Source of the DNA: a virus
Lineage: Duplodnaviria > Heunggongvirae > Uroviricota > Caudoviricetes
DNA length: 15,565 nucleotides
Virus record (IMG/VR): IMGVR_UViG_2667527717_000002
Strand: one strand, 5' to 3'
Both the position numbers and the translations under genes were made by a program. Shown here piece after piece: positions 1-15,565 of the stretch. The first letter of the stretch is position 1, and every line of letters begins with the position of its first letter. The notes beneath the pieces were generated by a model that ran no database searches, was not told the DNA's origin, and saw only the letters and a list, made by a program, of their open reading frames with translations.

Positions 1-349
1 ATAAACTCACTACAACGCACCTGAAACCTCTTGCTATATATATGTCAACCGTTTGAATTTAAAATAAAAAGAGTATCATTTTTACTTGCATTTCTTATCA
101 AGTCACATTCAACAACAGTAAAAAAACATTATTAGAACCATTCAATTAACAAAAAACCAACATCCAGCTTGCTTAATTTTTCTTTATTAAACGATATTGA
201 AAATCAATTGATAAAATACATCTAAACAACCTTTTTGGGCGCAAAAGCATAACATCAAACAAACAAATAACACACCGAAAAAACTCACAATTAATAACCT
301 ATGATATACATACTGTTTATTATGGTTGAATAAGCCACTCGATATCTGG
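1..349. other. AT-rich non-coding tract at the distal end of the tail-fibre module, with A-runs and no ORF of 60 aa or more on either strand
   Basis: Read directly: visibly low GC compared with the tail genes, several oligo-A tracts, no ORF in the supplied six-frame track. Function unknown; could be a prophage boundary or regulatory DNA. Confidence 0.4.
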
Positions 350-449
350 TGCTACGGAAGTGTCCACACGGTTTAGCAGCACCCGATACTTTTTCCAGGC
401 TTCCAGCAACGAGTTTTCTTCCTCCGTTGCATATACAGCTCACCTTTTT

Positions 450-743
450 TCACCCACGATTAACCAACAGCCAGACCAGCAGACACGCCACCACCGGCAC
501 AGCAAAATCCATCAGGCTTGCCACATCCCATGCACGTGTATCAAAACCGCCCCACCACGGCATATTCATTCGCTTGCCATGCCCGAACATTTCGATCCAG
601 CGATATTCTGCCTGGGTGTGTTCACGCGCAATGAAGAACGTACAACCGGCTATCGCCCCGTAAGCCCAGTTCCCGGTAAAAAGACCAATCAGTAGCTGCG
701 CAGCCACAGCACAAAGCGCATGAAGGAAAGGTGTTATATCCAT
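450..743 (-). CDS. Small predicted integral membrane protein, about 97 aa with three hydrophobic segments; function unknown, possibly a prophage accessory (moron) gene
   Basis: ORF 450..758 in the track begins at a TTG; I prefer the ATG at 743 (MDITPFLHAL...), which has an AGGA 5 nt upstream, with the ATG at 749 as an alternative. Hydrophobic stretches ITPFLHALCAVAAQLLIGLF, WAYGAIAGCTFFIA and AVPVVACLLVWLLV flank a Trp-rich loop (MPWWGGFD). I do not recognise the family. Confidence 0.5.
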   Translation of the reverse strand: MDITPFLHALCAVAAQLLIGLFTGNWAYGAIAGCTFFIAREHTQAEYRWIEMFGHGKRMNMPWWGGFDTRAWDVASLMDFAVPVVACLLVWLLVNRG

Positions 744-756
744 TTTCATCCTACCC

Positions 757-779
757 AATAAAACGGGGCGCTCGGCCCC
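757..779 (-). terminator. Candidate intrinsic terminator after the 346-aa gene
   Basis: Five-bp GC stem (765-769 ggggc pairs with 775-779 gcccc), 5-nt loop, followed on the minus strand by GUUUUAUU; starts 6 nt after the TAA stop at 786-788. Confidence 0.4.
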
Positions 780-785
780 TTAATA

Positions 786-1826
786 TTATTTAGACGCAAG
801 CGCCGCATCAATTGCAGATAATCTTTGTCTTAATTCTGCGTTTTCTTCTTCCAGTGCTGTTATTCTGTCGTCTGACTCTCTGGCTACCTGAACAAGCAAG
901 CCAGTAACACCAGAATAATCAACTGTGTAATAACGTTCACCTTCTTCACCTTCCGATCCGCTTGCACCGTCCTGATATTTCATTGCGGAACCTACAACTT
1001 CTGGGATTGCTTCCAGAGCTTCCTGTGCAATGACTCCAGCATAGGGCATACCGTTTTCTTTAAGCGTGTATGTATAGCCGTTCATTTTACGGATGCGGTC
1101 GGTTGCATTATCGATCACCTGAATGTTGTCTTTCAGATCCCGGTCGGAATGCTGGTTAAATGCGGTGGCATGACATGCACCATTAACGCTTAACATATAG
1201 GTGTTATCGGTATTTTTCTGCGCATAGAACATATAAGCGCCACCATCAGCACCAACTTCATATACAACCGGACGGGTAGAGTTACCCCACAAACTAGTAG
1301 TAGCGCCAGAATGAGCGGTTCCCTGTGTGTTGATTGTCATGGTTGACCCATGATTGGCATATTTGATTTGTAATGTGTCTGTGCAGTCAAACTTAATAAG
1401 CGCGTTACTTCCCCGCACACCATACGACATGAGACAGTTCCCCATCTTAAGGTAACCATCACTGCCTGGAAAAATTAATGTTCCGCCGTAAAGATCGCTA
1501 AAATCCCAAAAGATACCTTTTGTTCCATTGTGTGTGACAATCCTTGTCATTGTATCTTTTGTACCGTCAATATTTTTTCTGGTGTACATCTCACTATAAG
1601 CGTTTTCGGTTTCTCCTGTCTTATTTGACAAGTGAATCTTACCGCTAAATATAGTTCCAGTGGTCGGCAATGTCTTTTGATTATAGATTACATTGCAATA
1701 ACTATTCCATGTTGTTTTATTGTCTACATATGATTTTGTTGCGTAGCTTCCTTGATCGTTTTTTAATTTGCTAACGTCGGATTTTAGCGTTTTGATATCA
1801 TCAGGAATTACTGTCGATGTAGCCAT
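786..1826 (-). CDS. Tail fibre or tailspike-like protein with a C-terminal intramolecular chaperone, self-cleaving domain (peptidase S74-like)
   Basis: 346-aa ORF, ATG at 1824-1826 with GAGGA 7 nt upstream. The C-terminal ~110 aa (HSDRDLKDNIQVIDNATDRIRKMNGYTYTLKENG...YAGVIAQEALEAIPEVV...YTVDYSGVTGLLVQVARESDDRITALEEENAELRQRLSAIDAAL) fit the pattern I know from the self-cleaving chaperone domain of endosialidase and other phage fibres. N-terminal ~35 aa are coiled-coil-like; the middle is Gly/Thr/Asn-rich. Lower GC than the lambda-like genes. Confidence 0.75.
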   Translation of the reverse strand: MATSTVIPDDIKTLKSDVSKLKNDQGSYATKSYVDNKTTWNSYCNVIYNQKTLPTTGTIFSGKIHLSNKTGETENAYSEMYTRKNIDGTKDTMTRIVTHNGTKGIFWDFSDLYGGTLIFPGSDGYLKMGNCLMSYGVRGSNALIKFDCTDTLQIKYANHGSTMTINTQGTAHSGATTSLWGNSTRPVVYEVGADGGAYMFYAQKNTDNTYMLSVNGACHATAFNQHSDRDLKDNIQVIDNATDRIRKMNGYTYTLKENGMPYAGVIAQEALEAIPEVVGSAMKYQDGASGSEGEEGERYYTVDYSGVTGLLVQVARESDDRITALEEENAELRQRLSAIDAALASK

Positions 1827-1835
1827 TTTTCTTCC

Positions 1836-2117
1836 TCACATCCAGCCACGAAGTTGATGCTCAACAGCAACCGCGTATTCATCGAATAATGACGATATTT
1901 GCGAATCATTAATGATGCGCACGTTTACAAAATATCCGTCCTCCTTAACACATACCGGCTCGCCATCTTCAGTAAGTTCTCCGGTTTCTTTGTACACATT
2001 ACCTATCACGTCAATAAGAATATCATCCTGCATCGACTCGTCATCATAATAGCCAATACTCTCCATAAAGGCCGAAAAGTCGGCCCTGTCGGCAAATTTG
2101 AGTGTTAAATCTTTCAT
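1836..2117 (-). CDS. Hypothetical small acidic protein (93 aa), translationally coupled to the fibre gene; candidate fibre assembly or adaptor factor
   Basis: ATG at 2115-2117 shares one base with the stf TAA stop (TAATG); GGGGGAG 8 nt upstream; its stop at 1836-1838 lies 9 nt before the next gene's ATG. Sits where lambda has tfa but is shorter and I see no similarity to Tfa. Confidence 0.6.
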   Translation of the reverse strand: MKDLTLKFADRADFSAFMESIGYYDDESMQDDILIDVIGNVYKETGELTEDGEPVCVKEDGYFVNVRIINDSQISSLFDEYAVAVEHQLRGWM

Positions 2118-4495
2118 TAGATTGACTCCCCCATCTGAGCATCAGTCAATGCCTTGTGCCATATTCTGAAATTCCTGACATGACCAAATAAATGACGCAA
2201 CCCAGCTGTAGTCTGGCCTCCAATACGGATAATTGCGGTGTTCTGAATATAGGACCATGTGGCTTTCTTTTCGCTGGATATACGCCCGTTACTTACTGAG
2301 CACGTAGACTGATCTGACTTTACACGCATCCCCATAACCATTTTTTCAAGCGATGCGTTTTCGTTTACCCGTCTGTTAGCCAAACCTATATCGCAATAAG
2401 GAAATCCGTCGTAATCTGTTGAACGACCGAAGCCAAGAATAATAGCCGCTCCGGTTTGATGACCGCCGGTATCAAAAACACGCGGTGCTGCATTTGGCGT
2501 TTTATACCAGTTCTTATGTACCTCACAAAGAACTGTAAAAGGAAGATTATAAAGGTTATTCTTGATTGAGACTGTCACCATATCGCTTGCGCGAGTGCTT
2601 GCAATTATATCAGTTACAATAAATGACGAAGCACTTGATCCACCTTCCACTTGTGGAGTTGCGATATCCAGATAGTCTCCAGATGCTGTGCCTGAACCTT
2701 TTACTGGAGCATATTGAACCATCGCACCAATCATGCTCTCTGTATCTAGTGCATTAATTGTAGCCTGATAGAAAATCCAACCAGTAGCCTCATCTTTTAC
2801 AGCCTTTGCAATAATACGATTTGCTGCACCACCAGTCTTATCAATTACAAGTGTTGATAAATTGAGGTAAGCATCTCCCAAAAAAGTGTAAGTAGAACCA
2901 TCATGATGTTCAAATCTTAAACGACACCTTATATTTTCAACATCACTTCTGACACGGCATGAAATGGTCACATATTTTTCATCACCTGTGACATCAAATC
3001 CTTTACTGCCAGAAACCGTTACGATATTAATCGCACTTGTCTGATCAATAAGAGTATCTTTTACAGTAAATCTCCCATAAGTAAAATTAAAAGAATCCGT
3101 GGATATTTCTGTGAGTTCCAGATTGCCTGACTTATTCCATTTAGATGGATTTGTTGAATTAAGCAGAAGATTAGTTCTTTGCCCCTCAATAAGCAGGCCA
3201 TCACGTTCAAATCGCGGCTCGTCAATGGCAGCCTCTGTCAGTACACCAGATTTATTAATATAGGTTGCTTTCGATGCGCGTTTAAACTTAACAACCTTGT
3301 CACCAGGCATCGTTATTTCATCATCACCAATAACAATCTTTTTATATGATGGCGAAAAGCCCGTAATCATATCCAGTGAATCGTTAAACGGTATCCACAC
3401 ATCGGGAAGCGGCTGCAAAACTTGTTTATACGGCTCCGCAGCCTGGCTTGCATACTCTCTGGCTGCGTCTTCACTTGCTTTTGCAGCCGTCTGGCTTGCA
3501 GCGGATGCTTTCGCCGAGTTAGCCGCCGCAGTCTCGCTCGCCTTTGCGTTGGTTTCACTGGTTTTTGCAGCTTTTTGACTGTTGGCTGATGCAGTGGCAG
3601 AAGAAGCCGCCGCACTTGCAGAACCAGCTGCGGCACTCTCGCTTTGGGCTGCAGCATCCTGACTGTTTTTCGCCGCAGTTTCACTGGCTTTGGCATTCGT
3701 TTCGCTGGTCTTCGCTGCCGTCTGGCTGGACTTTGCGTTAGTTTCACTCGTCTTCGCAGCTTTCTGGCTGTTAGCCGCAGCAGTTGCTGATCCAGCTGCT
3801 GAAGTCGCAGAACCGGCTGCCGCGCTCTCGCTTTGGGCTGCTGCAACCTGGCTGTTTTTTGCCGCAGTTTCACTGGCTTTGGCATTCGTTTCGCTGGTCT
3901 TCGCTGCCGTCTGGCTGGACTTTGCGTTGGTTTCGCTCGTCTTTGCGGCTGTCTCGCTATTTTTCGCGTTGGTTTCTGATTTTTTGGCTGCTGCCGCGGA
4001 GTTTGCTGATGCAGTCTGTGAGGTCGCTGCCGCCTGTGCACTATTAGCTGCATTCGTTTCTGAGGTTTTCGCCGCGTTCTTCGATGATGCCGCTGCAGTT
4101 TCGGATTTCTTTGCCGCCGCTGCGCTCTGAGAGGCGGCTTCAGCGTTGCGTGCCGCTTCTTCCACCATTTCCTCAAAACGACGCAATGCCTCCGGCATGA
4201 CATCATCTTCCGTCATGGCACCGAGAAAATCATTCAGCGTACCTGGTCTGGAACCTTCATAGACGGTAATGGTCCCGGCATGCGAAGGCGGAAAACCTTC
4301 AACCAGCAGGGTGACGCTGTACTGGCCATACTCAACATCCATGCTGTAACGCCCGGCTTCATCAGGATTTTCAGAGGCCACCGTGTTCACCAGTACCGTG
4401 GTGCTGTTACGCTTTGCCTTCAGTTGAATAGTGCAGTTCTGTATTGGTTTTCCCGCACCATCTTTCAGCACACCTGAGATTTTTACTGCTGCCAT
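2117..4495 (-). CDS. stf: Side tail fibre protein (Stf-like): lambda-like N-terminus, Ala/Ser/Thr-rich repeat shaft, and a divergent C-terminal domain predicted to be lectin-like
   Basis: N-terminus MAAVKISGVLKDGAGKPIQNCTIQLKAKRNSTTV...GRYSMDVEYGQYSVTLLVEGFPPSHAGTITVYEGSRPGTLNDFL matches my recollection of lambda Stf. Start taken as the ATG at 4495 (GGAG 5-6 nt upstream) rather than the GTG at 4501. The C-terminal ~450 aa are unlike lambda Stf and end in ...GLRHLFGHVRNFRIWHKALTDAQM, reminiscent of concanavalin-A-like (LamG-like) lectin domains; that fold assignment is inference. Confidence 0.85.
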   Translation of the reverse strand: MAAVKISGVLKDGAGKPIQNCTIQLKAKRNSTTVLVNTVASENPDEAGRYSMDVEYGQYSVTLLVEGFPPSHAGTITVYEGSRPGTLNDFLGAMTEDDVMPEALRRFEEMVEEAARNAEAASQSAAAAKKSETAAASSKNAAKTSETNAANSAQAAATSQTASANSAAAAKKSETNAKNSETAAKTSETNAKSSQTAAKTSETNAKASETAAKNSQVAAAQSESAAAGSATSAAGSATAAANSQKAAKTSETNAKSSQTAAKTSETNAKASETAAKNSQDAAAQSESAAAGSASAAASSATASANSQKAAKTSETNAKASETAAANSAKASAASQTAAKASEDAAREYASQAAEPYKQVLQPLPDVWIPFNDSLDMITGFSPSYKKIVIGDDEITMPGDKVVKFKRASKATYINKSGVLTEAAIDEPRFERDGLLIEGQRTNLLLNSTNPSKWNKSGNLELTEISTDSFNFTYGRFTVKDTLIDQTSAINIVTVSGSKGFDVTGDEKYVTISCRVRSDVENIRCRLRFEHHDGSTYTFLGDAYLNLSTLVIDKTGGAANRIIAKAVKDEATGWIFYQATINALDTESMIGAMVQYAPVKGSGTASGDYLDIATPQVEGGSSASSFIVTDIIASTRASDMVTVSIKNNLYNLPFTVLCEVHKNWYKTPNAAPRVFDTGGHQTGAAIILGFGRSTDYDGFPYCDIGLANRRVNENASLEKMVMGMRVKSDQSTCSVSNGRISSEKKATWSYIQNTAIIRIGGQTTAGLRHLFGHVRNFRIWHKALTDAQMGESI
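3480..4120 (-). repeat. In-frame tandem repeat inside stf with a 189-bp (63-aa) unit: two near-identical copies plus degenerate flanking copies
   Basis: Read directly: gccgcagtttcactggctttggcattcgtttcgctggtcttcgctgccgtctggctggactttgcgtt occurs at 3672 and 3861; gaacc(a/g)gctgc...ctctcgctttgggctgc occurs at 3621 and 3810. Protein level: AAKTSETNAKSSQTAAKTSETNAKASETAAKNSQ(V/D)AAAQSESAAAGSA... twice. Confidence 0.85.
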
Positions 4496-4504
4496 ATCCA
4501 CTCC

Positions 4505-4533
4505 ACAAAAAAGCCCGCCTGAACCGGCGGGCT
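4505..4533 (-). terminator. Intrinsic terminator downstream of lom
   Basis: Eight-bp GC-rich stem (4512-4519 agcccgcc pairs with 4526-4533 ggcgggct), 6-nt loop, followed on the minus strand by UUUUUU (plus 4507-4512 aaaaaa); about 27 nt after the lom stop. Confidence 0.65.
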
Positions 4534-4559
4534 GTCATAACACTGTGTTACCTGGCTAA

Positions 4560-5159
4560 TCAGAATTTATAACCGACACCCACGATGAAACCGTCAGTGC
4601 GCCAGTCACCACTGCCGGAACCTTCATAAGCAAGGTCAATGGCCACGGATTCGGTCGGGTTAAACTGCACGCCAGCCCCCCACGCCAGAGACGTGTTGCT
4701 GTGGCGACCGTCATCACTTCCGGTCAGCACATCGTGCGTTTTCCCCTTGTTGTCAGTTACGCGGAGATAATCCCCGGAGAAGGTCGACACACGGCTGTAA
4801 GCCATACCCGCCATCGCATAAGCACTGAACCATTCATTCACGCGTACAGATGGCCCCGCCATCATGCTGAACCAGCGGTTACGCACTGAATCTTCATGCC
4901 AGCGGGTATCGCTGTAATGCGTTTTTTGCTCATCTTTGGCATTGGCATAACTGAATGACGTCACCAGCCCCAGCGTGTCCGTAAATTCATAACGGTATTT
5001 CACGTTAATGCCCTTCAGGTCATCACTGCCTGGCATATCAGTATGGGTCTGAAGATACCCGGCGCTTAGTGTGGACTGATGCTCTGCTGCGCTCGCTGGC
5101 GTACCAGCGGCAACCAGCCAGACTACTGCGGACAGAATAACAGCACATAATTTACGCAT
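4560..5159 (-). CDS. lom: Lom, an Ail/Lom-family outer-membrane beta-barrel protein (prophage accessory gene)
   Basis: 199 aa with an N-terminal signal peptide (MRKLCAVILSAVVWLVAAGTPASA) and C-terminal ...AYEGSGSGDWRTDGFIVGVGYKF, matching my recollection of lambda Lom; GAGAGG 4-5 nt upstream. Confidence 0.9.
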   Translation of the reverse strand: MRKLCAVILSAVVWLVAAGTPASAAEHQSTLSAGYLQTHTDMPGSDDLKGINVKYRYEFTDTLGLVTSFSYANAKDEQKTHYSDTRWHEDSVRNRWFSMMAGPSVRVNEWFSAYAMAGMAYSRVSTFSGDYLRVTDNKGKTHDVLTGSDDGRHSNTSLAWGAGVQFNPTESVAIDLAYEGSGSGDWRTDGFIVGVGYKF

Positions 5160-5183
5160 AATTACCTCTCGCTTTTCTGCAAT

Positions 5184-5207
5184 AAAAAAGGCGTCATTTC
5201 TGACGCC
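5184..5207 (-). terminator. Intrinsic terminator downstream of J
   Basis: Seven-bp stem (5190-5196 ggcgtca pairs with 5201-5207 tgacgcc), 4-nt loop, followed on the minus strand by UUUUUUAUU (plus 5184-5189 aaaaaa). Confidence 0.65.
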
Positions 5208-5226
5208 CGTATTGAGGTTATAAAAT

Positions 5227-8200
5227 TCAGCTGATACTGATGCCTGCGGTGGCTTTCTTCATCACCACAACCAGCAAATCGCTGATACTTGCTGTGGGAT
5301 ACCAGTCATTTACCAGCCATGCTGACACCGAAAACTCCAGCGTCATGTGACCGTGACCGGCAGGCATATCAATAACGCCACTGTAAATCAGCGTATTATC
5401 CAGCGCGGTACGGTTATAAATTTCAGCACCGTTTTTCCGCACTATCAGACGGCATGAGGAGTAAATATCAGTATGCTCTCTCTCATGTTTAGCGCCGCTG
5501 AATGCCACCGCCGGAATAACAATCTGCCGGTCAAACGGCTGATCGTCATAAACCCTGACGGTAATGGTCCCTGATGGCCACCGTTCCGGTGCACGGGAGT
5601 CCCGGGGGAAAGCTTTGCCCACTGTTTTAACGAGATCGCCTTCAATCTGGTTCGCGGACAGTTTTCCCAGAACCCGGCAGTTCTCGTTAATCGTGACGTT
5701 GTTGAGCGTCCCGGAGTTCGCATTCACGTTACCGCTGATATCGGCATTTTTCGCCGTCAGCCGCCCGTCCGGTGTCAGGGAAAATGCCGGAGGATTACCG
5801 CCGCTGGTAATGGTGGGAGCCGTCAGATATTTCAGGAACACTTCGTTCATGAATATCTGATCGCCCTGACCAACAAACATCGGCTTTGTGTTGCCATTCG
5901 CAGGATTAACCATCGCAATCCTGTCCGCCGCCAGCAGCACCTGACTCTGCATGCCGTCAGGGGTGTTCTCAATACCGGCACCAATACCCGCGATATAAAG
6001 GCGTCCGTCCTGCATCTGCTGCAGCTTCACAGCCCACATGCTGTTCAGGTTATTATTTGTATCAACCTGAACCTTCTGTATCTGCTGAATTGCCGCACTC
6101 TGGTCTTCCAGTTTCTTATTGACGGTCTGCGTGATTTCATTGCTGACATCCGTAATGGACGTCCTGATTTCAGCCAGGTCAGGCGCAAGCTGACCGTTAT
6201 CAATCTGCGTCCACAGCTCCTGAGCCAGATGGCTTTTCCCTATCTCGCCTTTGAAAAAATCCAGATAGCCGGATGCATCATCACTCGGCTGGCCAACAGC
6301 CTCCACAAATGCCGATTTGCCAACGGTGTTCACACTGCGGATGTAAAAATAATAATCATGGCCCGGTTTGATATTGATACTGGCGGCTATCCAGTACAGC
6401 GCCGTGCCAAGATAGCGGGCTGTGGTTTCAACCTGCCTGATATCGGTAATCCGCGTTTCCGAGAACCAGAACTCAAACTGTACCGTCGGATCATAAACCG
6501 CAAGATGCGGCGTGGCAGTTATCTGAAAATAGCCCGGCGTCAGCTCAATCCGCGACGGCGCTGCCGGTGCGGCAATCCGGAACGATACCGATGCCGGATC
6601 GCCCTGCTGTCCCCACGCATTTACCGCCCGGACCGTCAGCGTGTAACGCCCCAGCGCCAGTTGCCTGAAGCGGTATGTGGTTTCCGTCGTCCTGGCCGTG
6701 CTGACCAGCCGCTCACTGCCGTCGTCCGCTGCCACGGTCAGGCGAAGCAGGAAGCTCACGCCCTTCACCACCTTCGGCGTGTCCCAGCGGGCCAGTACCT
6801 GATACTCCCCGCTGTCTGCAGTGACTTCGGCAGTCAGGTGCTGCACCGCTGGCGGCGTGACACCATTCACCGTGCCGCTCTGGTCACCGTCAAAGTGCGC
6901 CCCGTTATCCACGATGGCTTCTTTCTCCGGTACATGCTGCACGGCAGTGATGGCATACGTGCCGTCGTCGTTCTCACGGATACTCACACAGCGGAACAGT
7001 CGCTGACGCAGCGTCGGCAGCTTCAGCCCCCATACGCTGTATTCAGCAACACCGTCAGGAACACGGCTCACTTTTACCTTCACGCCGTCGGTGACGGACT
7101 GAACCTCCACGCTGACCGGATTGCCACTTCCGTCAACCAGGCTTATCAGCGTGGTACCGGAGGATGGCAGCGTGATTTCACGGTCGAGCGTCAGCGTCCG
7201 GGTCTGGCTGTTTACCGCCAGCACGCGCCCGCCGGTGCTGATACCGGCATAGTCATCATCGCAGATTTCAATGACATCGCCCGGTACATGGCGAAGCCCT
7301 TCTGCACCCACGCTGAAGTCCACGGTCTGCGTTTCCAGCAGTTCCGTTTTAATCAGCCACAGCCCGGCGCGGTGCGCCTGCCCCCGGCTGGTACAGCCAA
7401 AGGCATCCATCTTCGTGACATTACGACCGTAACGGGCAATGGCCTGCGTATCTTCAACAAGCTCTGTCGCCGTCTCCCAGCCGTTGTTCGGGTCAATCCA
7501 GTTCACCTCAACGGCATTATGGCGGTCCTTCAGGGCGCTGAAGCTGTAGCGGAACGGCGCGCCATCATCCGGCATCACCACATTACTGCGGTTATAGGTC
7601 CACACCTTATCTGATGGTCGGTCCTGCACGAACGTCAGCGTCTGCCCGTTCCATACCGGCATACAGCGCATCGCCGAGCAGAAATCACTGAGCACATCCC
7701 ACGCCTTACGCTGCGTGGTCAGGTAGGCATTACAGGTGATGCGCGGCTCCGTGCCGCCAAAACCGTCCGGCACTGACTGGTCGCAGTACTGGCCGATGAC
7801 ATACAGCGCCCATTTATCCACATCCGCCGCACAAAGACGTTTCCCCATGCCGTAGCGCGGGTGGGTCAGCATATCCCACAGACACCAGGCCGGGTTGTTG
7901 CTGTATGCCGGCTTAAACGTTCCGTCCCAGATACCGCTGTATTGCCGCGTCTGCGGGTTATAGTTCGACGGCACCTGCAGAATGCGCCCGCGAAGATGAT
8001 AATTACGGCTCACCTGCTGGCTGCCGAACTGCTCCGAGTCCACCTGCACGCCGACCAGTGCCGTGTTCGGGTAGCACTGTTTCACATCGATGATTTCGGT
8101 GTATGACGACCAGAGCGTTTTGTTCTGCAGCTGGTCTGTGGTGCTGTCCGGCGTCATCCTGCGCATCCGGATATTAAACGGGCGCGGCGGCAGGCTACCC

Positions 8201-8706
8201 ACCACCACCGAGGCCAGATACTGCGAGGTGGTTTTGCCCTTAATGGTGATGTCTTTTTCCGTCACCCAGCCACCGTTACGTTGTATCTGAACCAGCAGAC
8301 GGACTTCCGACGGATTCCTGTCCCCCTTTGAGGTGGTTTCCACCAGTGCCTGTACACCGAAGGTAAAGCGCAGACGGTCGATGTTTGCAGACGTAATGGT
8401 GCGGGTGATCGGCGTGTCATATTTCACTTCCGTACCCAGCACCGTCTCGGAGCCGGAGGATTCAAACCCCTCCGGCGGTGTCTGCTCCTGCTCACCGGCA
8501 CGGAACACCACCGTGACACCGGAGATGTTGGTATTCCCCTCAGTGTCCAGCACCGGCGTACTGTTCAGCAGCACGCTTTTTAATCCATCCACCGGACCTT
8601 CAACCGGCCCTTCGCTGATGGCATCGATCACACTCAGCAACTGCGTGGACTTCAGGTTGTCCTTCGCTTCGCGCGGGGTATGCCCCTTACTGCTTCCTTT
8701 ACCCAT
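5227..8706 (-). CDS. J: Tail tip, central fibre, host-specificity protein J
   Basis: 1159 aa beginning [34 protein letters not shown]...; most of the length is close to lambda J as I recall it. GTGAGGA upstream of the ATG. Confidence 0.95.
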
Positions 8707-8728
8707 TCCTCACGCTCCATAAATGACA

Positions 8729-8748
8729 AAACCGCCCGCAGGCGGTTT
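8729..8748 (-). promoter_or_regulatory. GC-rich hairpin with a U-tract in the I-J intergenic spacer (candidate attenuator or RNA-processing structure)
   Basis: Plus strand aaccgccc-gca-ggcggtt: 6 to 8 bp stem; on the minus-strand transcript it is followed by UUUUGUCAUUU and then the J ribosome-binding site. Confidence 0.35.
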
Positions 8749-8766
8749 CACATAAAACATTTTGCA

Positions 8767-9438
8767 TCAGCGACCAATCACCACAACCTGACCACCGTCC
8801 CCTTCGTCTGCCGTGCTGATCTCCTGAGAAACCACGCGTGACCCCACGCGCATTTCCCCGTACAGAACAGGCAGAACATTGCCCTGGGCAACCATGTTAT
8901 CCAGTGAAGAGAAATAGGTGTTCTGCTTACCGTTATCCGTTGTCTGTGTACGGGGAGTTCTGGCTTTCGGTGCCAGCATCTGCGCCACACCACCGAGCAC
9001 CATACTGGCACCGAGAGAAAACAGGATGCCGGTCATACCACCGGCCCCAATGGCTGCCCCCCATGCTGCAAGGGTGGCTCCGGCGGTAAAGAATGATCCG
9101 GCAATGGCGGCAGCCCCCAGGACAATCTGGAATACGCCACCTGACTTGGCCCCGGCGACTCTGGGAACAATATGAATCACAGCGCCATCAGGCAGAGTCT
9201 CATGTAACTGCGCCGTTAACCCGGACGTGCTGACGTCCCGCCCGGCAATCCGTACCTGATACCAGCCGTCGCTCAGTTTCTGACGAAACGCCGGGAGCTG
9301 TGTGACCAGTGCCCGGATGGCTTCAGCCCCCGTTTTCACACGAAGGTCGATGCGGCGACCAAATCGTTGTAAATCCCCGTAAAGGCAGATGCGCGCCATG
9401 CCCGGTGACGCCAGAGGGAGTGTGTGCGTCGCTGCCAT
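8767..9438 (-). CDS. I: Tail assembly protein I
   Basis: 223 aa, MAATHTLPLASPGMARICLYGDLQRFGRRIDLRVKTGAEAIRAL..., with a Gly/Ala-rich hydrophobic C-terminal half; lambda gpI-like in sequence and position. Its 5' end overlaps the 3' end of K by about 100 nt. Confidence 0.9.
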   Translation of the reverse strand: MAATHTLPLASPGMARICLYGDLQRFGRRIDLRVKTGAEAIRALVTQLPAFRQKLSDGWYQVRIAGRDVSTSGLTAQLHETLPDGAVIHIVPRVAGAKSGGVFQIVLGAAAIAGSFFTAGATLAAWGAAIGAGGMTGILFSLGASMVLGGVAQMLAPKARTPRTQTTDNGKQNTYFSSLDNMVAQGNVLPVLYGEMRVGSRVVSQEISTADEGDGGQVVVIGR

Positions 9439-10079
9439 TTGTCGGTGTACCTCTCTCGTTTGCTCAGTTGTTCAGGAATATGGTGCAGCAGCTCGCCGTC
9501 ACCACAGTAAATGGCGGCATGATTCGGCACCGATGAACCAAAACAGCACAGCAGCACATCGCCCGGCTGCGCCGCTGACAACGGCACCTGATACAGCCCT
9601 GTGGCCTCCAGATTATCCAGATAGAGATTCTGGCCGTTACGCCACCAGTCATCCTCACGATGAAAGTCCGGCATCTCAATCCCCGCCAGATGGTAAGCGT
9701 CCCGGAACAGCGTGTAACAGTCCGTCACCCCGTGCTCAAAGCGCCGCCCGGTGAGATGCGGCACACAGCGGAACTTATGAATCGCCCCCCGGCAGACCAG
9801 CCACCACGGCAAATCACTCTGCACCTGCAGCCGCCGGTCGGCCTCACTCAGCCAGGGCAGACCACCGGGATGACTGTGGACCAGCGCCACAATCTCACCC
9901 TGCATTTCTGCCTGCAGCCAGTCCTCCGGCGACATCCGGAAATAATCCTCCGGCTCACCGGAGATATTCACGCAGGGAAAATATCTTTCCCCCTCCGGCG
10001 TTCTCACCACGAAGCCGCACGACTCCGCTGGCGCACATCGCCGGGCGTGCGCCAGAATCGCTGATTCTGTCTCTGTCAT
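9336..10079 (-). CDS. K: Tail assembly protein K (JAMM/MPN metalloprotease-like domain plus NlpC/P60-like domain)
   Basis: Start taken at the ATG at 10077-10079 (MTETESAILAHARRCAP...), 4 nt after the L stop; the track ORF extends further to 10154 across L. HSHPGG...SEAD is a JAMM-type motif and ...GVTDCYTLFRDAYH...NHAAIY has the Cys/His arrangement of NlpC/P60. Confidence 0.9.
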   Translation of the reverse strand: MTETESAILAHARRCAPAESCGFVVRTPEGERYFPCVNISGEPEDYFRMSPEDWLQAEMQGEIVALVHSHPGGLPWLSEADRRLQVQSDLPWWLVCRGAIHKFRCVPHLTGRRFEHGVTDCYTLFRDAYHLAGIEMPDFHREDDWWRNGQNLYLDNLEATGLYQVPLSAAQPGDVLLCCFGSSVPNHAAIYCGDGELLHHIPEQLSKRERYTDKWQRRTHSLWRHRAWRASAFTGIYNDLVAASTFV

Positions 10080-10083
10080 GGGA

Positions 10084-10782
10084 TTACTGCGAAAGTTTGT
10101 TAATGGAAAGGAAGCCGCCAAAGTTGCCGACGTTATTGCGGAACTTACAGCCACTCAGGCATTTGCTGCATTTATCCTTCGTGATATCGGACGTCGGCTG
10201 GTCATATTCATCCGCGACCGCCGGACCGCTATAACCGCACTCATCACCGCGATAGGTCCAGGTGCAGGTGTTGGCCAGCATGATGCGCCCCGGAAAAACA
10301 GCACCATCCGTTTCCGTCGGCGTGGACAACACAAAGGAGGCACTGACCGCGCTCAGTTCGCTGCACTGCTCGACGCGCCAGCGGCTGATCACCTCCTGCT
10401 CCGGATCGGCATCACTGTTTCCGTTGACGAAATTCACCGCATCCAGAAAACGGGCGTAAACCTTACGCCTGACCACCGTTCCGCCGACCAGACTCTGCAG
10501 ATCTTCCACCATCCCGGTGACCATACCGTACAGGTTAGAAACCGTCAGCGTGGGGCGCGTACTGGTGCCTTTGCCATTCAGTTCAAAACCGCTCCCCTGA
10601 ATGGGATACGCCTGATACTGTCGCCCCTGCCAGGTGACCGGCTCACCTTTTTCGTTCTGCTCATTACAGAAAAAATAACGCTCTCCACCGACCTCTGTCA
10701 GATCGATTTCCCAGAGCACCACGCTGGCCGACTGCTCCGCACGGGTGCATTCATTCAGTGTTTCCTGCCGGATATCCTGCAT
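10084..10782 (-). CDS. L: Minor tail protein L
   Basis: 232 aa, MQDIRQETLNECTRAEQSASVVLWEIDLTEVGGERYFFCNEQNE...; C-terminal cysteine cluster (C...CSKCLSGC) consistent with the Fe-S site reported for gpL. Start ATG overlaps the M stop by 1 nt. Confidence 0.9.
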   Translation of the reverse strand: MQDIRQETLNECTRAEQSASVVLWEIDLTEVGGERYFFCNEQNEKGEPVTWQGRQYQAYPIQGSGFELNGKGTSTRPTLTVSNLYGMVTGMVEDLQSLVGGTVVRRKVYARFLDAVNFVNGNSDADPEQEVISRWRVEQCSELSAVSASFVLSTPTETDGAVFPGRIMLANTCTWTYRGDECGYSGPAVADEYDQPTSDITKDKCSKCLSGCKFRNNVGNFGGFLSINKLSQ

Positions 10783-11111
10783 CAGTTCACCACCTGTTTA
10801 AACTCTGCGCTGAACTCAACACGCAACATACTGACCTGCGACGACCATTTTGCGCAGGTCACCTTTATCTGCCTGTAACCATAAGGCGGCGTCCACAGAA
10901 AGGCCTTCCAGCCCCCGTGCTCAGCCAGAAACGACTCCAGCGCCGTGGCCTCCTCACGGGAGACAGACAGCGTCACGCTGTACGTTTTCAGGTCAGCGTT
11001 CAGCCCGGCAGGCGCACGCTGGGAATAGCCATCACCAAAGCGCACCTCCCTGACGGAAGGAGCCGATGTCACATCCATCCCGGGTTTCACTTTCCAGCGG
11101 AAGGTTTTCAT
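10782..11111 (-). CDS. M: Minor tail protein M
   Basis: 109 aa, MKTFRWKVKPGMDVTSAPSVREVRFGDGYSQRAPAGLNADLKTYSVTLSV...; ATGA overlap with the H stop. Confidence 0.9.
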   Translation of the reverse strand: MKTFRWKVKPGMDVTSAPSVREVRFGDGYSQRAPAGLNADLKTYSVTLSVSREEATALESFLAEHGGWKAFLWTPPYGYRQIKVTCAKWSSQVSMLRVEFSAEFKQVVN

Positions 11112-13669
11112 CGTCCACCTCCGGAGAACAGACCACCATCGCGCATCTGTGCCTGGATTTCATCACGGGCACCCTTGCGGGCCATGTCATACACCGCCTT
11201 CATCATCTGTGGACCTGGCAGACCATTCGTACCGTCGTTCTGAATCACCACGTTGTTGTTCTGCTCAAACCTGATACCCTCTGAACGCCGCATTTGCGCC
11301 GGACTTCCGGTGCCACCGACATAACCGCCGGTGGCATAGCCGCGCATCAGCCGGTAGAGATTTCCCACGCCAATCCGGCTGGTTGCCTCCTTCGTGAAGA
11401 CAAATTCACCACGGTGAACAATCCCCGCTGGCTCATATTTGCCGCCGGTTCCCGTAAATCCTCCGGTTGCAAAATGGAGTTTCGCCGCAGCGGCCTGAAT
11501 GGCTGTACCGCCTGACGCGGATGCGCCGCCACCAACAGCCCCGCCAATAGCGCTGCCGATACTCCCGACAATCCCCACCATTGCCTGCTTAAGCAGAATT
11601 TCTGTCATCATGGACAGCACGGAACGGGTGAAGCTGCGCCAGTTCTGTTCACTGCCGGTCAGCATCGCCGCCATATTCTGTGCAATACCATCAAAGGTCT
11701 GCGTGGCAGCACTTTTTACCTGCGACATACTGTCCGTGGCGCTCTCTTCCCACTCACTCCAGCCGGACTTCAGGCCTGCCATCCAGCTCCCGCGAAGCTG
11801 GTCTTCAGCCGCCCAGGTCTTTTTCTGCTCTGACATGACGTTATTCAGCGCCAGCGGATTATCGCCATACTGTTCCTTCAGGCGCTGTTCCGTGGCTTCC
11901 CGCGCTGCCTGCCGGTCAGTCAGCCCCCGGTTTTTTGCATCAATGGCGGCCCGTTTTGCCCGTTGCTGCTGTGCGAATTTATCCGCCTGCTGCGCCAGCG
12001 CATTCAGGTGCTCCTGATACGTGACCTTATCGCCAAGTGCAGCCAGCTGGCGCTTGTACTCCAGCGTCTCGTCTTTATGCGCCAGCAGGGATTTCTCCTG
12101 TGCAGACAGCTGGCGACGTTGCGCCGCCTCCTCCAGTACCGCGAACTGATTCTCCGCCTTCCACAAATCCCGGCGCTGCTGGCTGATTTTCTCATTCGCT
12201 ACGGCATGCTTCTCCAGCGTCCGGAGTTCTGCCTGAAGCGTCAGCAGGGCAGCATGAGCACTGTCTTCCTGACGATCGCCCGCAGACACCTTCACGCCGG
12301 ACTGCTTCGGCTTTTTCAGCGTCGATTCATAATCCTTTTTCGCTGCCGCCATCAGCGTGTTGTAATCTGCCTGCAGGATTTTCCCGTCTTTCAGTGCCTT
12401 ATTCAGTTCTTCCTGACGGGCGGTATATTTCTCCAGCGGCGTCTGCAGGCGTTCGTAAGCCTTCTGCGCCTCTTCGGTATATTTAAGCCGTGACGCTTCG
12501 GTATCGCTCTGCTGCTGCGCATTTTTGTCCTGTTGAGTCTGCTGCTCAGCCTTCTTTCGGGCGGCTTCAAGCGCAAGACGGGCCTTTTCACGATCATCCC
12601 AGTAACGCGCCCGCGCTTCATCGTTAACAAAATAATCATCCTTGCGCAGATTCCAGATGTCGTCTGCTTTCTTAAACGCAGCCTCTGCCTTAATCAGCAT
12701 CTCCTGAGCGGTATCAGGACGACCAATATCCAGCACCGCATCCCACATGGATTTGAATTCCCGTGCTGTCCTGTCTGCCCAGGTCTCCAGCGTGCCCATG
12801 TTCTCTTTCAGGCGGCGGGTCTGGTCATCAAACCCTTTCGTTGCGGCCTCGTTCGCCGCCTGCAATGCCCCTGCCTCATCGCCGGAACGCTGCAACTGAG
12901 CGACATACGCAATCTGCTCCGCCGTCACGTTATGGAACTGGCGTGCCATCGCCGTCAGCCCCGACGTCGGGTCTGTGGTCAGCTTCCCGAAGGCTTCAGC
13001 GACCTTGTCCACCTCCACGCCGGATGCAGAGGAGAAACGCGCCACACTCTGGCTGATGGATGCAATCTGAGCCTCACCGCTTACTCCCGCCTTAACCAGT
13101 GCGCTGAGTGACTCGCTGGTCTGGTTAAACGTCAGCCCTGCCGCCTGCCCGGCTCTGGACAGGACCAGCATACGATCTGCCGTCAGTCCTGCCTGATTAC
13201 CGGAAAGGACCAGCGTTTTGTTGAAATCGGACAGGGTTGAGTTGCCCTGATACCAGGCATACGCCAGCGCACCGGTCGCCACCGCCAGCGAGGTGGCCCC
13301 GACCATCGGCAGGGTGATCGCACCGGCAAGCCCCCTGAACATGGGGATCATCCCGCCGAAGGAGTCCTTCACCTGACCACCCTGTTGCAGCAGGATCAGC
13401 CACGGACTTTGCCCGCCTGCAAGCTGCGTGGCCACGTCGGTGAACTGTGCAGGCAGCATACGCATGGCGGCTTTATACTGCCCGACGGAAATCCCCGCTT
13501 TCTGTGCAGCCAGCGCCTGTCGGCTCAGCGACTGTTCAACGACTGCCGCTGTTTTTTTCGCATCACTTTCCGTACCGGAAAAATGACGCCTGACTCTGGC
13601 CATCTGCTCGTCAAACCTGGCCGCATCCAGACTTAAATCAACGACCAGATCGCCTACCGGTTCAGCCAT
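11108..13669 (-). CDS. H: Tail tape measure protein H
   Basis: 853 aa, the same length as lambda gpH; long Ala/Gln/Lys/Glu-rich helical core and Gly-rich C-terminus (GGAVGGGASASGG...LFSGGGR). Its start overlaps the 3' end of the T frame. Confidence 0.95.
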   Translation of the reverse strand: MAEPVGDLVVDLSLDAARFDEQMARVRRHFSGTESDAKKTAAVVEQSLSRQALAAQKAGISVGQYKAAMRMLPAQFTDVATQLAGGQSPWLILLQQGGQVKDSFGGMIPMFRGLAGAITLPMVGATSLAVATGALAYAWYQGNSTLSDFNKTLVLSGNQAGLTADRMLVLSRAGQAAGLTFNQTSESLSALVKAGVSGEAQIASISQSVARFSSASGVEVDKVAEAFGKLTTDPTSGLTAMARQFHNVTAEQIAYVAQLQRSGDEAGALQAANEAATKGFDDQTRRLKENMGTLETWADRTAREFKSMWDAVLDIGRPDTAQEMLIKAEAAFKKADDIWNLRKDDYFVNDEARARYWDDREKARLALEAARKKAEQQTQQDKNAQQQSDTEASRLKYTEEAQKAYERLQTPLEKYTARQEELNKALKDGKILQADYNTLMAAAKKDYESTLKKPKQSGVKVSAGDRQEDSAHAALLTLQAELRTLEKHAVANEKISQQRRDLWKAENQFAVLEEAAQRRQLSAQEKSLLAHKDETLEYKRQLAALGDKVTYQEHLNALAQQADKFAQQQRAKRAAIDAKNRGLTDRQAAREATEQRLKEQYGDNPLALNNVMSEQKKTWAAEDQLRGSWMAGLKSGWSEWEESATDSMSQVKSAATQTFDGIAQNMAAMLTGSEQNWRSFTRSVLSMMTEILLKQAMVGIVGSIGSAIGGAVGGGASASGGTAIQAAAAKLHFATGGFTGTGGKYEPAGIVHRGEFVFTKEATSRIGVGNLYRLMRGYATGGYVGGTGSPAQMRRSEGIRFEQNNNVVIQNDGTNGLPGPQMMKAVYDMARKGARDEIQAQMRDGGLFSGGGR

Positions 13670-14500
13670 ACCGGACTCCTCCTGCGATCCCTTCTGATAC
13701 TGTCATCAGCATTACGTCATCCTCCGTCATTTCAGCCACATCCGGGGAAGCGCGGATAACTTCATTCCCGTCCGGACCAAAGCGGACGCCTCCGGCAAGC
13801 CCTGCCGCTTTCTGCATCAGCACATCATCTTCAGGCTCTTCGTCAGCCTCACGCCGGTTCAGCAGACTGAAATCCAGCGGATGCATATCCGGATCGCTGA
13901 AAAACAGGCTGAGTACGGTGTACGTCAGCCCGGAAAAGTGCATATCCAGCAGAACATCATGAAAATAATGGGTACTGTAAAAGCGGTGCCAGTCGGCGTA
14001 CTCCGTGGATGACATCCCGGCAAGCATGGCGCGCCAGTCGGGTCGCCCCATCTCTCGCGCCAGTTTCAGGGCAAAACTCAGCTCACCGTCGAACACTTTC
14101 CCGCAGAAACAGGCTCTGCAGGCCCGGCGTCATCTGCCTGTTCAGGAGCATCATTCACCACAAACTCATACATACCGGACAGCCGGTACACCACGTTTTC
14201 AGCATGAGAAATTGCCTCTGTGGGCCAGGTGGTAAGCACTTCCTGCTCAATCTGCGTAACGGCTTCATTCATGGACGGCTGCTTTGTCTTCTGTGGATGG
14301 TTATGCCACAGGGACATCGCCACCACAAAAGCACCGGTTCTGATGGCGTCTTCCACAGTAAACTTCCGGTTGCTGTCTGACTCCGCCTGTTCTGCCTGCC
14401 GTTTCATCAGGGCGAGATGCTCAATACGCTGCAGGGCTGACAGTTCAGAAAGCGTGACGGTCACGCCGTTATGTTCAAATGATTCTGTTTTCAGGAACAT
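13662..14500 (-). CDS. T: Tail assembly chaperone G-T fusion, made by a programmed -1 ribosomal frameshift near the end of G
   Basis: The -1 frame ORF (track 13662..14096) overlaps the 3' end of G, and the G GGA AAG slippery heptamer sits at minus 14102..14096 in the G frame. After the slip the reading is GKVFDGELSFALKLAREMGRP...IAGGVRYG. Confidence 0.85.
14078..14500 (-). CDS. G: Tail assembly chaperone G
   Basis: 140 aa, MFLKTESFEHNGVTVTLSELSALQRIEHLALMKRQAEQAESDSNRKF...AGKCSTVS, matching lambda gpG as I recall it. Confidence 0.9.
   Translation of the reverse strand: MFLKTESFEHNGVTVTLSELSALQRIEHLALMKRQAEQAESDSNRKFTVEDAIRTGAFVVAMSLWHNHPQKTKQPSMNEAVTQIEQEVLTTWPTEAISHAENVVYRLSGMYEFVVNDAPEQADDAGPAEPVSAGKCSTVS
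14096..14102 (-). promoter_or_regulatory. Slippery heptanucleotide G GGA AAG for the G to G-T -1 frameshift
   Basis: Read directly: plus 14096-14102 ctttccc is GGGAAAG on the minus strand, positioned as X XXY YYZ in the G frame (gcG GGA AAG). Confidence 0.8.
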
Positions 14501-14515
14501 CGCTGACTCTCCGGA

Positions 14516-15256
14516 TTAACTGGCGGTGACGGTGATTTCTGCAACCGCAGCAAACTCACCATTACCGGATACAACCGGAATGTTGACCTTGCCTGCAGCA
14601 ACGCCGTTCACGGTGATGATCATACCACTGACCGACACGGTGGCTTTTGTTTTATCCGCTGACACCGCACGGAAGCTCTTGTCGGTTGCGCCTTCCGGCT
14701 GGAATGCCACGGTCAGCGTCGTGCTCTGCCCTTTCACTACGGAAGCACTGGCTGGCGTTACCGTCATGCCGGTGGCCGCTGTTACCGTGCTGCGATCTTC
14801 TGCCATCGACGGGCGTCCCACATTGGTGACCTTCACCGTGCGGGTGATCACTTCCTTCGCCGTCACCGCTTTACCGATACTGCTGACCCAGCCACGGAAC
14901 ACATCGACCGTGCCGTTCGGGAAGCGGATTTTATAGGCACGGGTATCACCTTCATTAAACCACGCCAGCAGCGCCTGCTGCCCCTGCTCTCCGGGCATCC
15001 ACGCCAGCGTGAAGCTGGTATCTCCGGCTGATTTCTGCCCCTGCCCGGTCGCAGTCCAGTCCGCATCCTCATCATCGAGATAACTGTCGTCATAGGAATC
15101 AGCGGTCAGTTCGCCGGGCGTCAGGTCTTTAACTTTTGCCAGACGCGACCAGTCAACGTCTGAAAGCGGGTTCGCATAAGGGTCACCGTTCCCCTTATAA
15201 ACCCACAGTGTGGTCCCGGCCCCTTTCACCGGCATTGTAGGATTTGGTACAGGCAT
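14516..15256 (-). CDS. V: Major tail tube protein V, with a C-terminal Ig-like (Big_2-type) domain
   Basis: Start taken at the ATG at 15254-15256 ([22 protein letters not shown]...), with GAGGA upstream; the track ORF extends 10 codons further into U. The C-terminal ~90 aa (...[90 protein letters not shown]) look Ig-like. Confidence 0.95.
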
Positions 15257-15263
15257 AGCGTCC

Positions 15264-15419
15264 TCACATTTCATAGGTAATGACATACGTCAGATCGGCT
15301 GAACTCCACAGGCCCGCATCATCGTCGCGTCGGTAGTCATAGCCACTGGCCACCATACTGGTGATCAAATCTGACAGTGCCGGAATATCGCTCATCACCG
15401 GATAAATCCGGGACTCCAT
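15264..15419 (-). pseudogene. U: 3' remnant of tail terminator gene U (about the last 51 codons); the 5' part is absent
   Basis: Minus-strand translation ending at the TGA at 15264-15266 reads ...[51 protein letters not shown], matching the C-terminus of lambda gpU as I recall it. Going upstream, the frame hits an in-frame TAA (plus 15447-15449) 9 codons before the first Met, so only about 52 codons of the expected ~131 are present. Confidence 0.7.
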
Positions 15420-15565
15420 CCACGCTGGATACACTGAAAGGCCAGCTTAGCCCACAGCGAGTGGCGATCATTAATAATGCTTTGGGTAATGGGACGCTGG
15501 CTAACTTAACGCTCAGCCCAACAGAGCAGCAATACGTTGTTAATGCTAATGACGCAATAATGGCA

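Follow-up and report, generated by a model that had tools for sequence, protein, structure and literature searches.

The abrupt end of lambda similarity within gene U of a prophage contig is probably an assembly false join to a P22 gp20-type gene fragment

The lambda-like tail module carried by a viral DNA stretch of 15,565 nt (the whole of which is termed the window here) breaks off within U, the tail terminator gene, and abuts an internal piece of a P22 gp20-type DNA-ejection protein gene encoded on the opposite strand. At this end of contig CCBS01000239.1 there is probably a false join made during assembly or scaffolding, or else a chimeric extension, the prophage itself not having been rearranged. 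The initial annotation had concluded that the prophage was truncated or rearranged within U. A junction is indeed present in the record and U is not full length, but biological truncation is probably the wrong conclusion, as near-identical relatives are intact and the break lies at a contig end. The lambda-like prophage is most likely complete. Taken at face value, the record suggests a head-less or rearranged lambda-like prophage; caution is therefore needed, and no reliance should be placed on the final 141 bases of the contig. The features at and around the junction were as follows.

14516 to 15256, minus strand: intact gene for the major tail protein V, 246 aa (called at 310-1050 in the CCBS01000239.1 record; PF16461/PF02368)
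15264 to 15424, minus strand: 3′ fragment of U, a lambda-type tail terminator gene (last two bases of codon 79, codons 80 to 131 and the stop)
15365 to 15565, plus strand: composite open frame of 67 codons (20 codons antisense to U and 47 codons of the gp20 frame, in register by chance)
15425: orphan base C at the join, templated by neither parent
15426 to 15565, plus strand: piece from within a P22 gp20-type DNA-ejection protein gene (second base of codon 331 to the end of codon 377, of 473)
15447 to 15449, minus strand: in-frame TAA, identified by minus-strand translation, closing the U frame upstream of the join

An exact match to the tape-measure protein identified the source of the window as contig CCBS01000239.1 of the draft assembly GCA_000938175.1; the reverse complement of this contig is the window, and the range given for the record is 1108-15565. 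The minus strand encodes a lambda-like tail module consisting of tail fibre genes, lom, J, I, K, L, M, H, T/G and V. The V gene lies immediately downstream of U, inside a block that is 100% identical to sibling contigs, and the order of genes beside the U fragment is that of lambda, with V, G, T and H following. The fragment thus occupies the place of U in the series Z-U-V-G-T-H, with Z missing from the contig. Within the stf gene, also on the minus strand, an internal 249-nt repeat was observed (window positions ~3524-3772 and ~3713-3961), its two copies sharing 84% identity and starting 189 nt (63 codons) apart.

Minus-strand translation detected lambda-U-like codons from W80 to M131 (52 codons, bases 15267 to 15422), followed by termination of the frame at 15264-15266. 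In the upstream direction, eight non-U codons separate W80 from the TAA, which is located nine codons upstream of W80; a frame that is lambda-like for its last ~52 codons and then meets an in-frame stop had been correctly described in the initial annotation. This TAA is a chance stop lying inside the antisense of the gp20-type fragment and is not a sequencing error in U. The 56-aa open reading frame at 15264-15434 matched the Pfam family PF06141 (Phage_tail_U) only at profile positions 80-130 of 130 (E = 2.6e-20), and no complete frame of ~131 aa spanning the domain was found. The fragment resembles lambda gpU (PF06141) in encoding residues 80 to 131, with DNA that is 97-99.7% identical to lambda, 434, HK630 and many prophages, but differs in that residues 1 to 79 are absent and have no replacement N terminus. 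Judging by its sequence, the fragment would be incapable of working as a terminator. The 43-aa "U" product listed in the contig record was called by the gene caller from this broken gene.

Two other accounts of the stop had been named in the initial annotation as observations that would refute a break, and neither was sustained by the DNA upstream of the break, which is the antisense of a gp20-type gene at 100% identity. For a full-length U broken by a sequencing error, similarity to U would have to resume upstream of 15424, and there was none, only the perfect identity to an opposite-strand gene. A U variant with another N-terminal half was rejected on the grounds that the DNA there runs antisense to an unrelated gene and the frame closes after nine codons.

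The position of the join was established by nucleotide comparison. Megablast matches to lambda-like prophages and phages (3,627 of the 5,426 complete E. coli genomes and 91 phage records) all ended at 15424 or 15425, indicating that the break is sharp with no gradual loss of similarity. This alignment placed the last lambda-like base at 15424 and bore out the earlier statement that lambda similarity ends abruptly inside U. In an ungapped comparison, the window was 100.000% identical to two sibling contigs up to 15424 (from 2373 in one and 2383 in the other), and 15426-15565 was 100% identical to another gene. Matches to the ejection gene, 60 of which were sampled across the ranking, started at 15426 or later. 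The intervening base, C at 15425, reads A in three identical or near-identical copies of the prophage (L002, L003 and L015, described below) and also in E. coli 042; some other lambda-type U alleles, those with matches extending to 15425, do carry C at this position. The joint reads ...CCACG / C / TGGATACACTG... and is blunt; the 27-mer spanning it is GGGACTCCATCCACGCTGGATACACTG. Ungapped comparison of both parents detected no shared bases at the joint, and microhomology-mediated recombination was rejected since zero bases are common to the two parents there.

Two other candidates for the break were also rejected. An IS element or host gene was discarded, the tail being a fragment of a phage ejection-protein gene with no IS ends. 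The idea that assemblies break at a mosaic boundary or recombination hotspot within U was discarded because divergence was unchanged at the breakpoint in U alignments covering 20 loci. A 5-bp inverted repeat with a 3-nt loop was observed at the joint, with ATCCA (15418-15422) separated by cgc from TGGAT (15426-15430); one arm lies in U and the other makes up bases 1 to 5 of the foreign piece. Such an inverted repeat may be due to chance, estimated at roughly 1%.

The DNA beyond the break was identified by blastn. The 140 nt from 15426 to 15565 were identical at 140/140 positions to the gene for WP_000246959.1, a "phage DNA ejection protein", in E. coli 042 (E = 1e-64; positions 12001-12140 of the extracted region NC_017626.1 4198135-4217750, the whole gene occupying 4209778-4211199), and many other genomes matched too. 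Among the possibilities listed in the initial annotation, which were an IS element, a host gene or another phage module, it is therefore the last that applies. The 473-aa parent protein matched PF16928 (P22 injectosome translocase, Inj_translocase; 1.4e-58) and, over its full length, phrog_917 (1.2e-111), which places it in the P22 gp20 family. In E. coli 042 its gene is accompanied by genes for gp14-like (DUF2824), gp7 (PF25688) and gp16-like (phrog_770) proteins in the order gp14-gp7-gp20-gp16-like. The resemblance of the window to P22 gp20 resides in the identity of its 140-nt tail to the gene of this family member; it differs in comprising only 47 codons, which lie outside the Pfam-defined N-terminal domain, such that the fragment alone fits no family. 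Only codons 331 to 377 are present, with neither start nor stop nor gp7 and gp16 neighbours, and the fragment continues to the contig end. DNA of the gp20-type gene was detected in 321 of the 5,426 complete E. coli genomes, and no match was found at the DNA level in the phage record collection.

An unrecognised plus-strand open frame without an ATG, running from about 15365 out of the window, had been reported in the initial annotation. The frame exists. It opens past a stop at 15362-15364 and extends for 67 codons, with GTG at 15377, GTG at 15461, TTG at 15482 and ATG at 15560 as the only start-type codons. The contig record contains no gene call for this frame, and the frame is no gene.

Intact versions of the same prophage were present in other assemblies. 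L002 (contig CCBR01000014.1, 39.9 kb) exhibited 0 mismatches to the window over 13,042 nt (2383-15424) and L003 (CDRV01000079.1) 0 mismatches over 13,052 nt (2373-15424). In both of these contigs U is intact (its region in L002 being 7711-8706), encodes 131 aa and is preceded by Z, FII, FI, E, D, C, B, W and A. L015, a 227-kb contig from an unrelated assembly project, had a single mismatch to window positions 1-15424 (at 11800) and likewise an intact U beyond. An identical J protein was encoded at eight places, and a 131-aa U was found in 8/8 of these. The proposal that the head genes are not contiguous with the tail module is thus probably wrong, as Z and the head genes lie upstream of an intact U in the near-identical copies.

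The junction itself was not found elsewhere. No place in the 5,426 complete E. coli genomes covered at least 80% of window positions 15100-15565. A 36-nt junction pattern had 0 matches in species-representative genomes, JGI metagenome contigs and IMG/VR, and a relaxed pattern allowing 0 to 6 free bases at the joint had 0 matches in the species-representative genomes and JGI metagenome contigs; as these contig collections are without most draft E. coli assemblies, the negative result is weaker than it appears. A literature search on the accession numbers gave no match. In the contig index, CCBS01000239.1 was seen in 3 samples; this count probably reflects duplicate deposits, megabase contigs also showing counts of 2, and was not taken as independent replication. 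A genuine scar would be reproducible in independent assemblies or related strains and would have kilobases of unique sequence on both sides, and neither property was observed for this junction.

The position of the join within the contig was also suggestive. The join (15424/15426) is 141 nt short of the end of CCBS01000239.1; 15.4 kb were assembled on one side of it and 141 nt on the other, after which the contig ends. Only about 2% of single-copy real junctions would be expected this near to either end of a 15.6-kb contig, which favours a false join.

Odd tails were also present on the sibling contigs. The CCBS01, CCBR01 and CDRV01 records appear, from their accession style and identical DNA, to derive from one pipeline, and L003 was the sole other complete contig compared from these presumed sister submissions. 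The start of L003 (1-36) consists of 32 nt from within the core gene thiF plus the letters 'NNGN', after which the contig enters the terminase gene A at an internal point; of the 5,426 complete E. coli genomes, 5,421 contain the thiF piece. As an N-containing joint between thiF and terminase cannot be read-through, the ends of L003 must include pieces placed by inference. The other end (20320-20417, 98 nt) passes from mid-stf through an orphan G, where both parents have A, into 97 nt spanning the end of ypfJ and the start of tmcA. The tail of the window has the same form as the L003 tails, namely, a long correct contig, a misfit base and a short unrelated piece, and this similarity favours a false join. 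Placeholder or ambiguous bases were thus observed at the joint in the window (C 15425) and, as part of the same pattern, at the other ends ('NNGN' and the orphan G of L003); the join is near a contig end, and in other genomes each of its parts adjoins a different partner. No consistent value for the assembler k emerged from the tail lengths (140/141 and 97/98 nt).

This argument from analogy is weakened by L002. At 21287-21300, stf is joined in register, and 10 nt sooner, to the same ypfJ/tmcA host DNA; this join may be real, being internal to the 39.9-kb contig. Two further contigs had the same gene arrangement in the stf-tmcA neighbourhood, and none of the 5,426 complete E. coli genomes contained the L002 join. 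The L002 stf-tmcA join may be either a real rearrangement of the lineage or a reproducible misjoin.

The false join would have arisen as follows. The organism would carry a complete lambda-like prophage with an intact U and, elsewhere in the same chromosome, a P22 gp20-type ejection-protein gene; a 140-nt piece of the latter would then have been attached to the end of the prophage contig in the course of assembly, scaffolding or gap closing, with a single placeholder base, the orphan C at 15425, linking the two pieces. It is at one of these three steps, we infer, that the join was made. Misassembly, which had been raised in the initial annotation as something to exclude, is in fact the reading favoured by the evidence of the contig end, the intact relatives, the unique join and the sibling tails. 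In particular, the combination of intact relatives with 0 or 1 differences, a unique junction and an absence of microhomology favours a false join. Greedy scaffolders and gap fillers are known to make such joins, 4 to 10 misassemblies per bacterial test genome having been reported with Velvet/SSPACE/GapFiller (Page et al. 2016, PMC5320598), a combination that may not be the pipeline used for CCBS01. The window resembles the false joins of scaffolded drafts described there (PMC5320598) in the proximity of a contig end, the perfect copies on both sides, the single misfit base and the N-joints in siblings, but differs in that the two loci share no repeat that would explain their linkage. The lack of a repeat common to U and the gp20-type gene, which could have misled a scaffolder, counts against a false join, as does the low likelihood of at least five random chimeric read pairs linking the same two loci. 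Furthermore, the contig runs unbroken through the U breakpoint, as would be expected if the reads contained no intact U.

The principal alternative is that the junction is real and that illegitimate, homology-independent recombination joined the prophage at codon 79 of U to the 3′ part of a gp20-type gene from another resident element. Such a junction may mark one endpoint of a deletion, inversion or duplication, and the contig would stop 140 nt further on since an intact gp20-type copy branches the assembly graph. We regard this as unlikely, even though the junction is present in the deposited sequence, genuine E. coli mobile-element DNA is perfectly matched on either side of it, the U breakpoint was passed without a contig break and prophage decay by deletion is common. 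The location of the join 141 nt from the contig end would require an extra gp20-type copy or a mixed culture, and the intactness of relatives with 0 or 1 differences in 13 to 15 kb would make the event extremely recent and private. Illegitimate recombination in E. coli usually uses a few bases of homology, but this joint has no microhomology and includes an untemplated base. The prophage and the island carrying the gp20-type gene also occupy different contexts, as the L015 prophage adjoins AraC-family and omptin genes and the 042 island adjoins dinD/yicG; if they are similarly far apart in this isolate, a simple deletion would probably remove essential genes. While the second homology-free join in L002 (stf to tmcA, mid-contig) is in keeping with a real event, the same family of assemblies also exhibits the plainly non-biological thiF-NNGN-terminase joint.

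Known junctions provide a further comparison. Truncated lambdoid prophages and aberrant-excision junctions of the lambda dgal type are similar to the window in that a late gene is cut and foreign DNA is abutted without homology. These and other decayed-prophage junctions differ, however, in being inherited in related strains, in lying beside the attachment site and in assembling through both sides, none of which was seen here. If real, the junction would represent a cross between a P4-like island with a P22-type ejection module and a lambda-like prophage, giving a head-less tail module ending in U. It would be an ordinary, private and very recent decay scar without a functional product or broader significance, the genes diverging from the joint and both fragments being without a start.

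Truncations in related prophages were considered as further support for a real junction. In three loci (L017, L021 and L022, ~1-1660), this tail module occurs together with a capsid gene E shortened to 254 aa, which has an opposite-strand DUF2971 gene as its neighbour; these look like genuine, shared head-region truncations of a related prophage. In L014, U is cut 10 nt from the window breakpoint. At 9555-10132 of this locus (CAXKMX010000001.1, GCA_964054145.1), the truncated lambda-like U abuts non-phage DNA downstream of an integrase gene and a TPR-protein gene; this site adjoins yqgA and is 1.7 kb from a contig end. A different disruption was observed in L009 (CADGQN010000121.1), where a 26-nt tandem duplication, GGAGTCCCGGATTTATCCGGTGATGA, at ~9975-10005 frameshifts U at the spot of the window breakpoint. 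L014 and L009 were found with the 43-aa fragment, and because such a search favours U genes disrupted shortly upstream of Met89, it is probably selection that accounts for the proximity of these two disruptions to the breakpoint. Other matches to this fragment were restricted to unrelated frameshifted or gapped assemblies.

It is highly improbable that the junction existed only in the sequencing library, with chimeric molecules that arose through ligation or template switching as the library was prepared having been used to extend the contig end: the blunt, homology-free join of two unrelated loci, its location at the extreme end of the contig and the flanking ATCCA/TGGAT inverted repeat, which could favour strand switching, are in agreement with such an origin, but coverage cut-offs normally eliminate random chimeras, which have low depth, the 140-nt tail exceeds what a typical short read of the period adds past its anchor and, by our reasoning, simple priming at the inverted repeat would not yield the product seen here. 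This origin was counted as a sub-case of an artefactual junction.

The 042 island from which the matching gp20-type gene was taken had an unusual composition. Within the first 19000 nt of NC_017626.1 4198135-4217750, there were no head or tail genes; the island consists of an integrase, AntA/B, an Ash-family protein and a TOPRIM+DUF927 primase, followed only by the P22-like gp14, gp7, gp20 and gp16-like genes. It could be a satellite-like element that keeps only the ejection-protein module or a prophage remnant.
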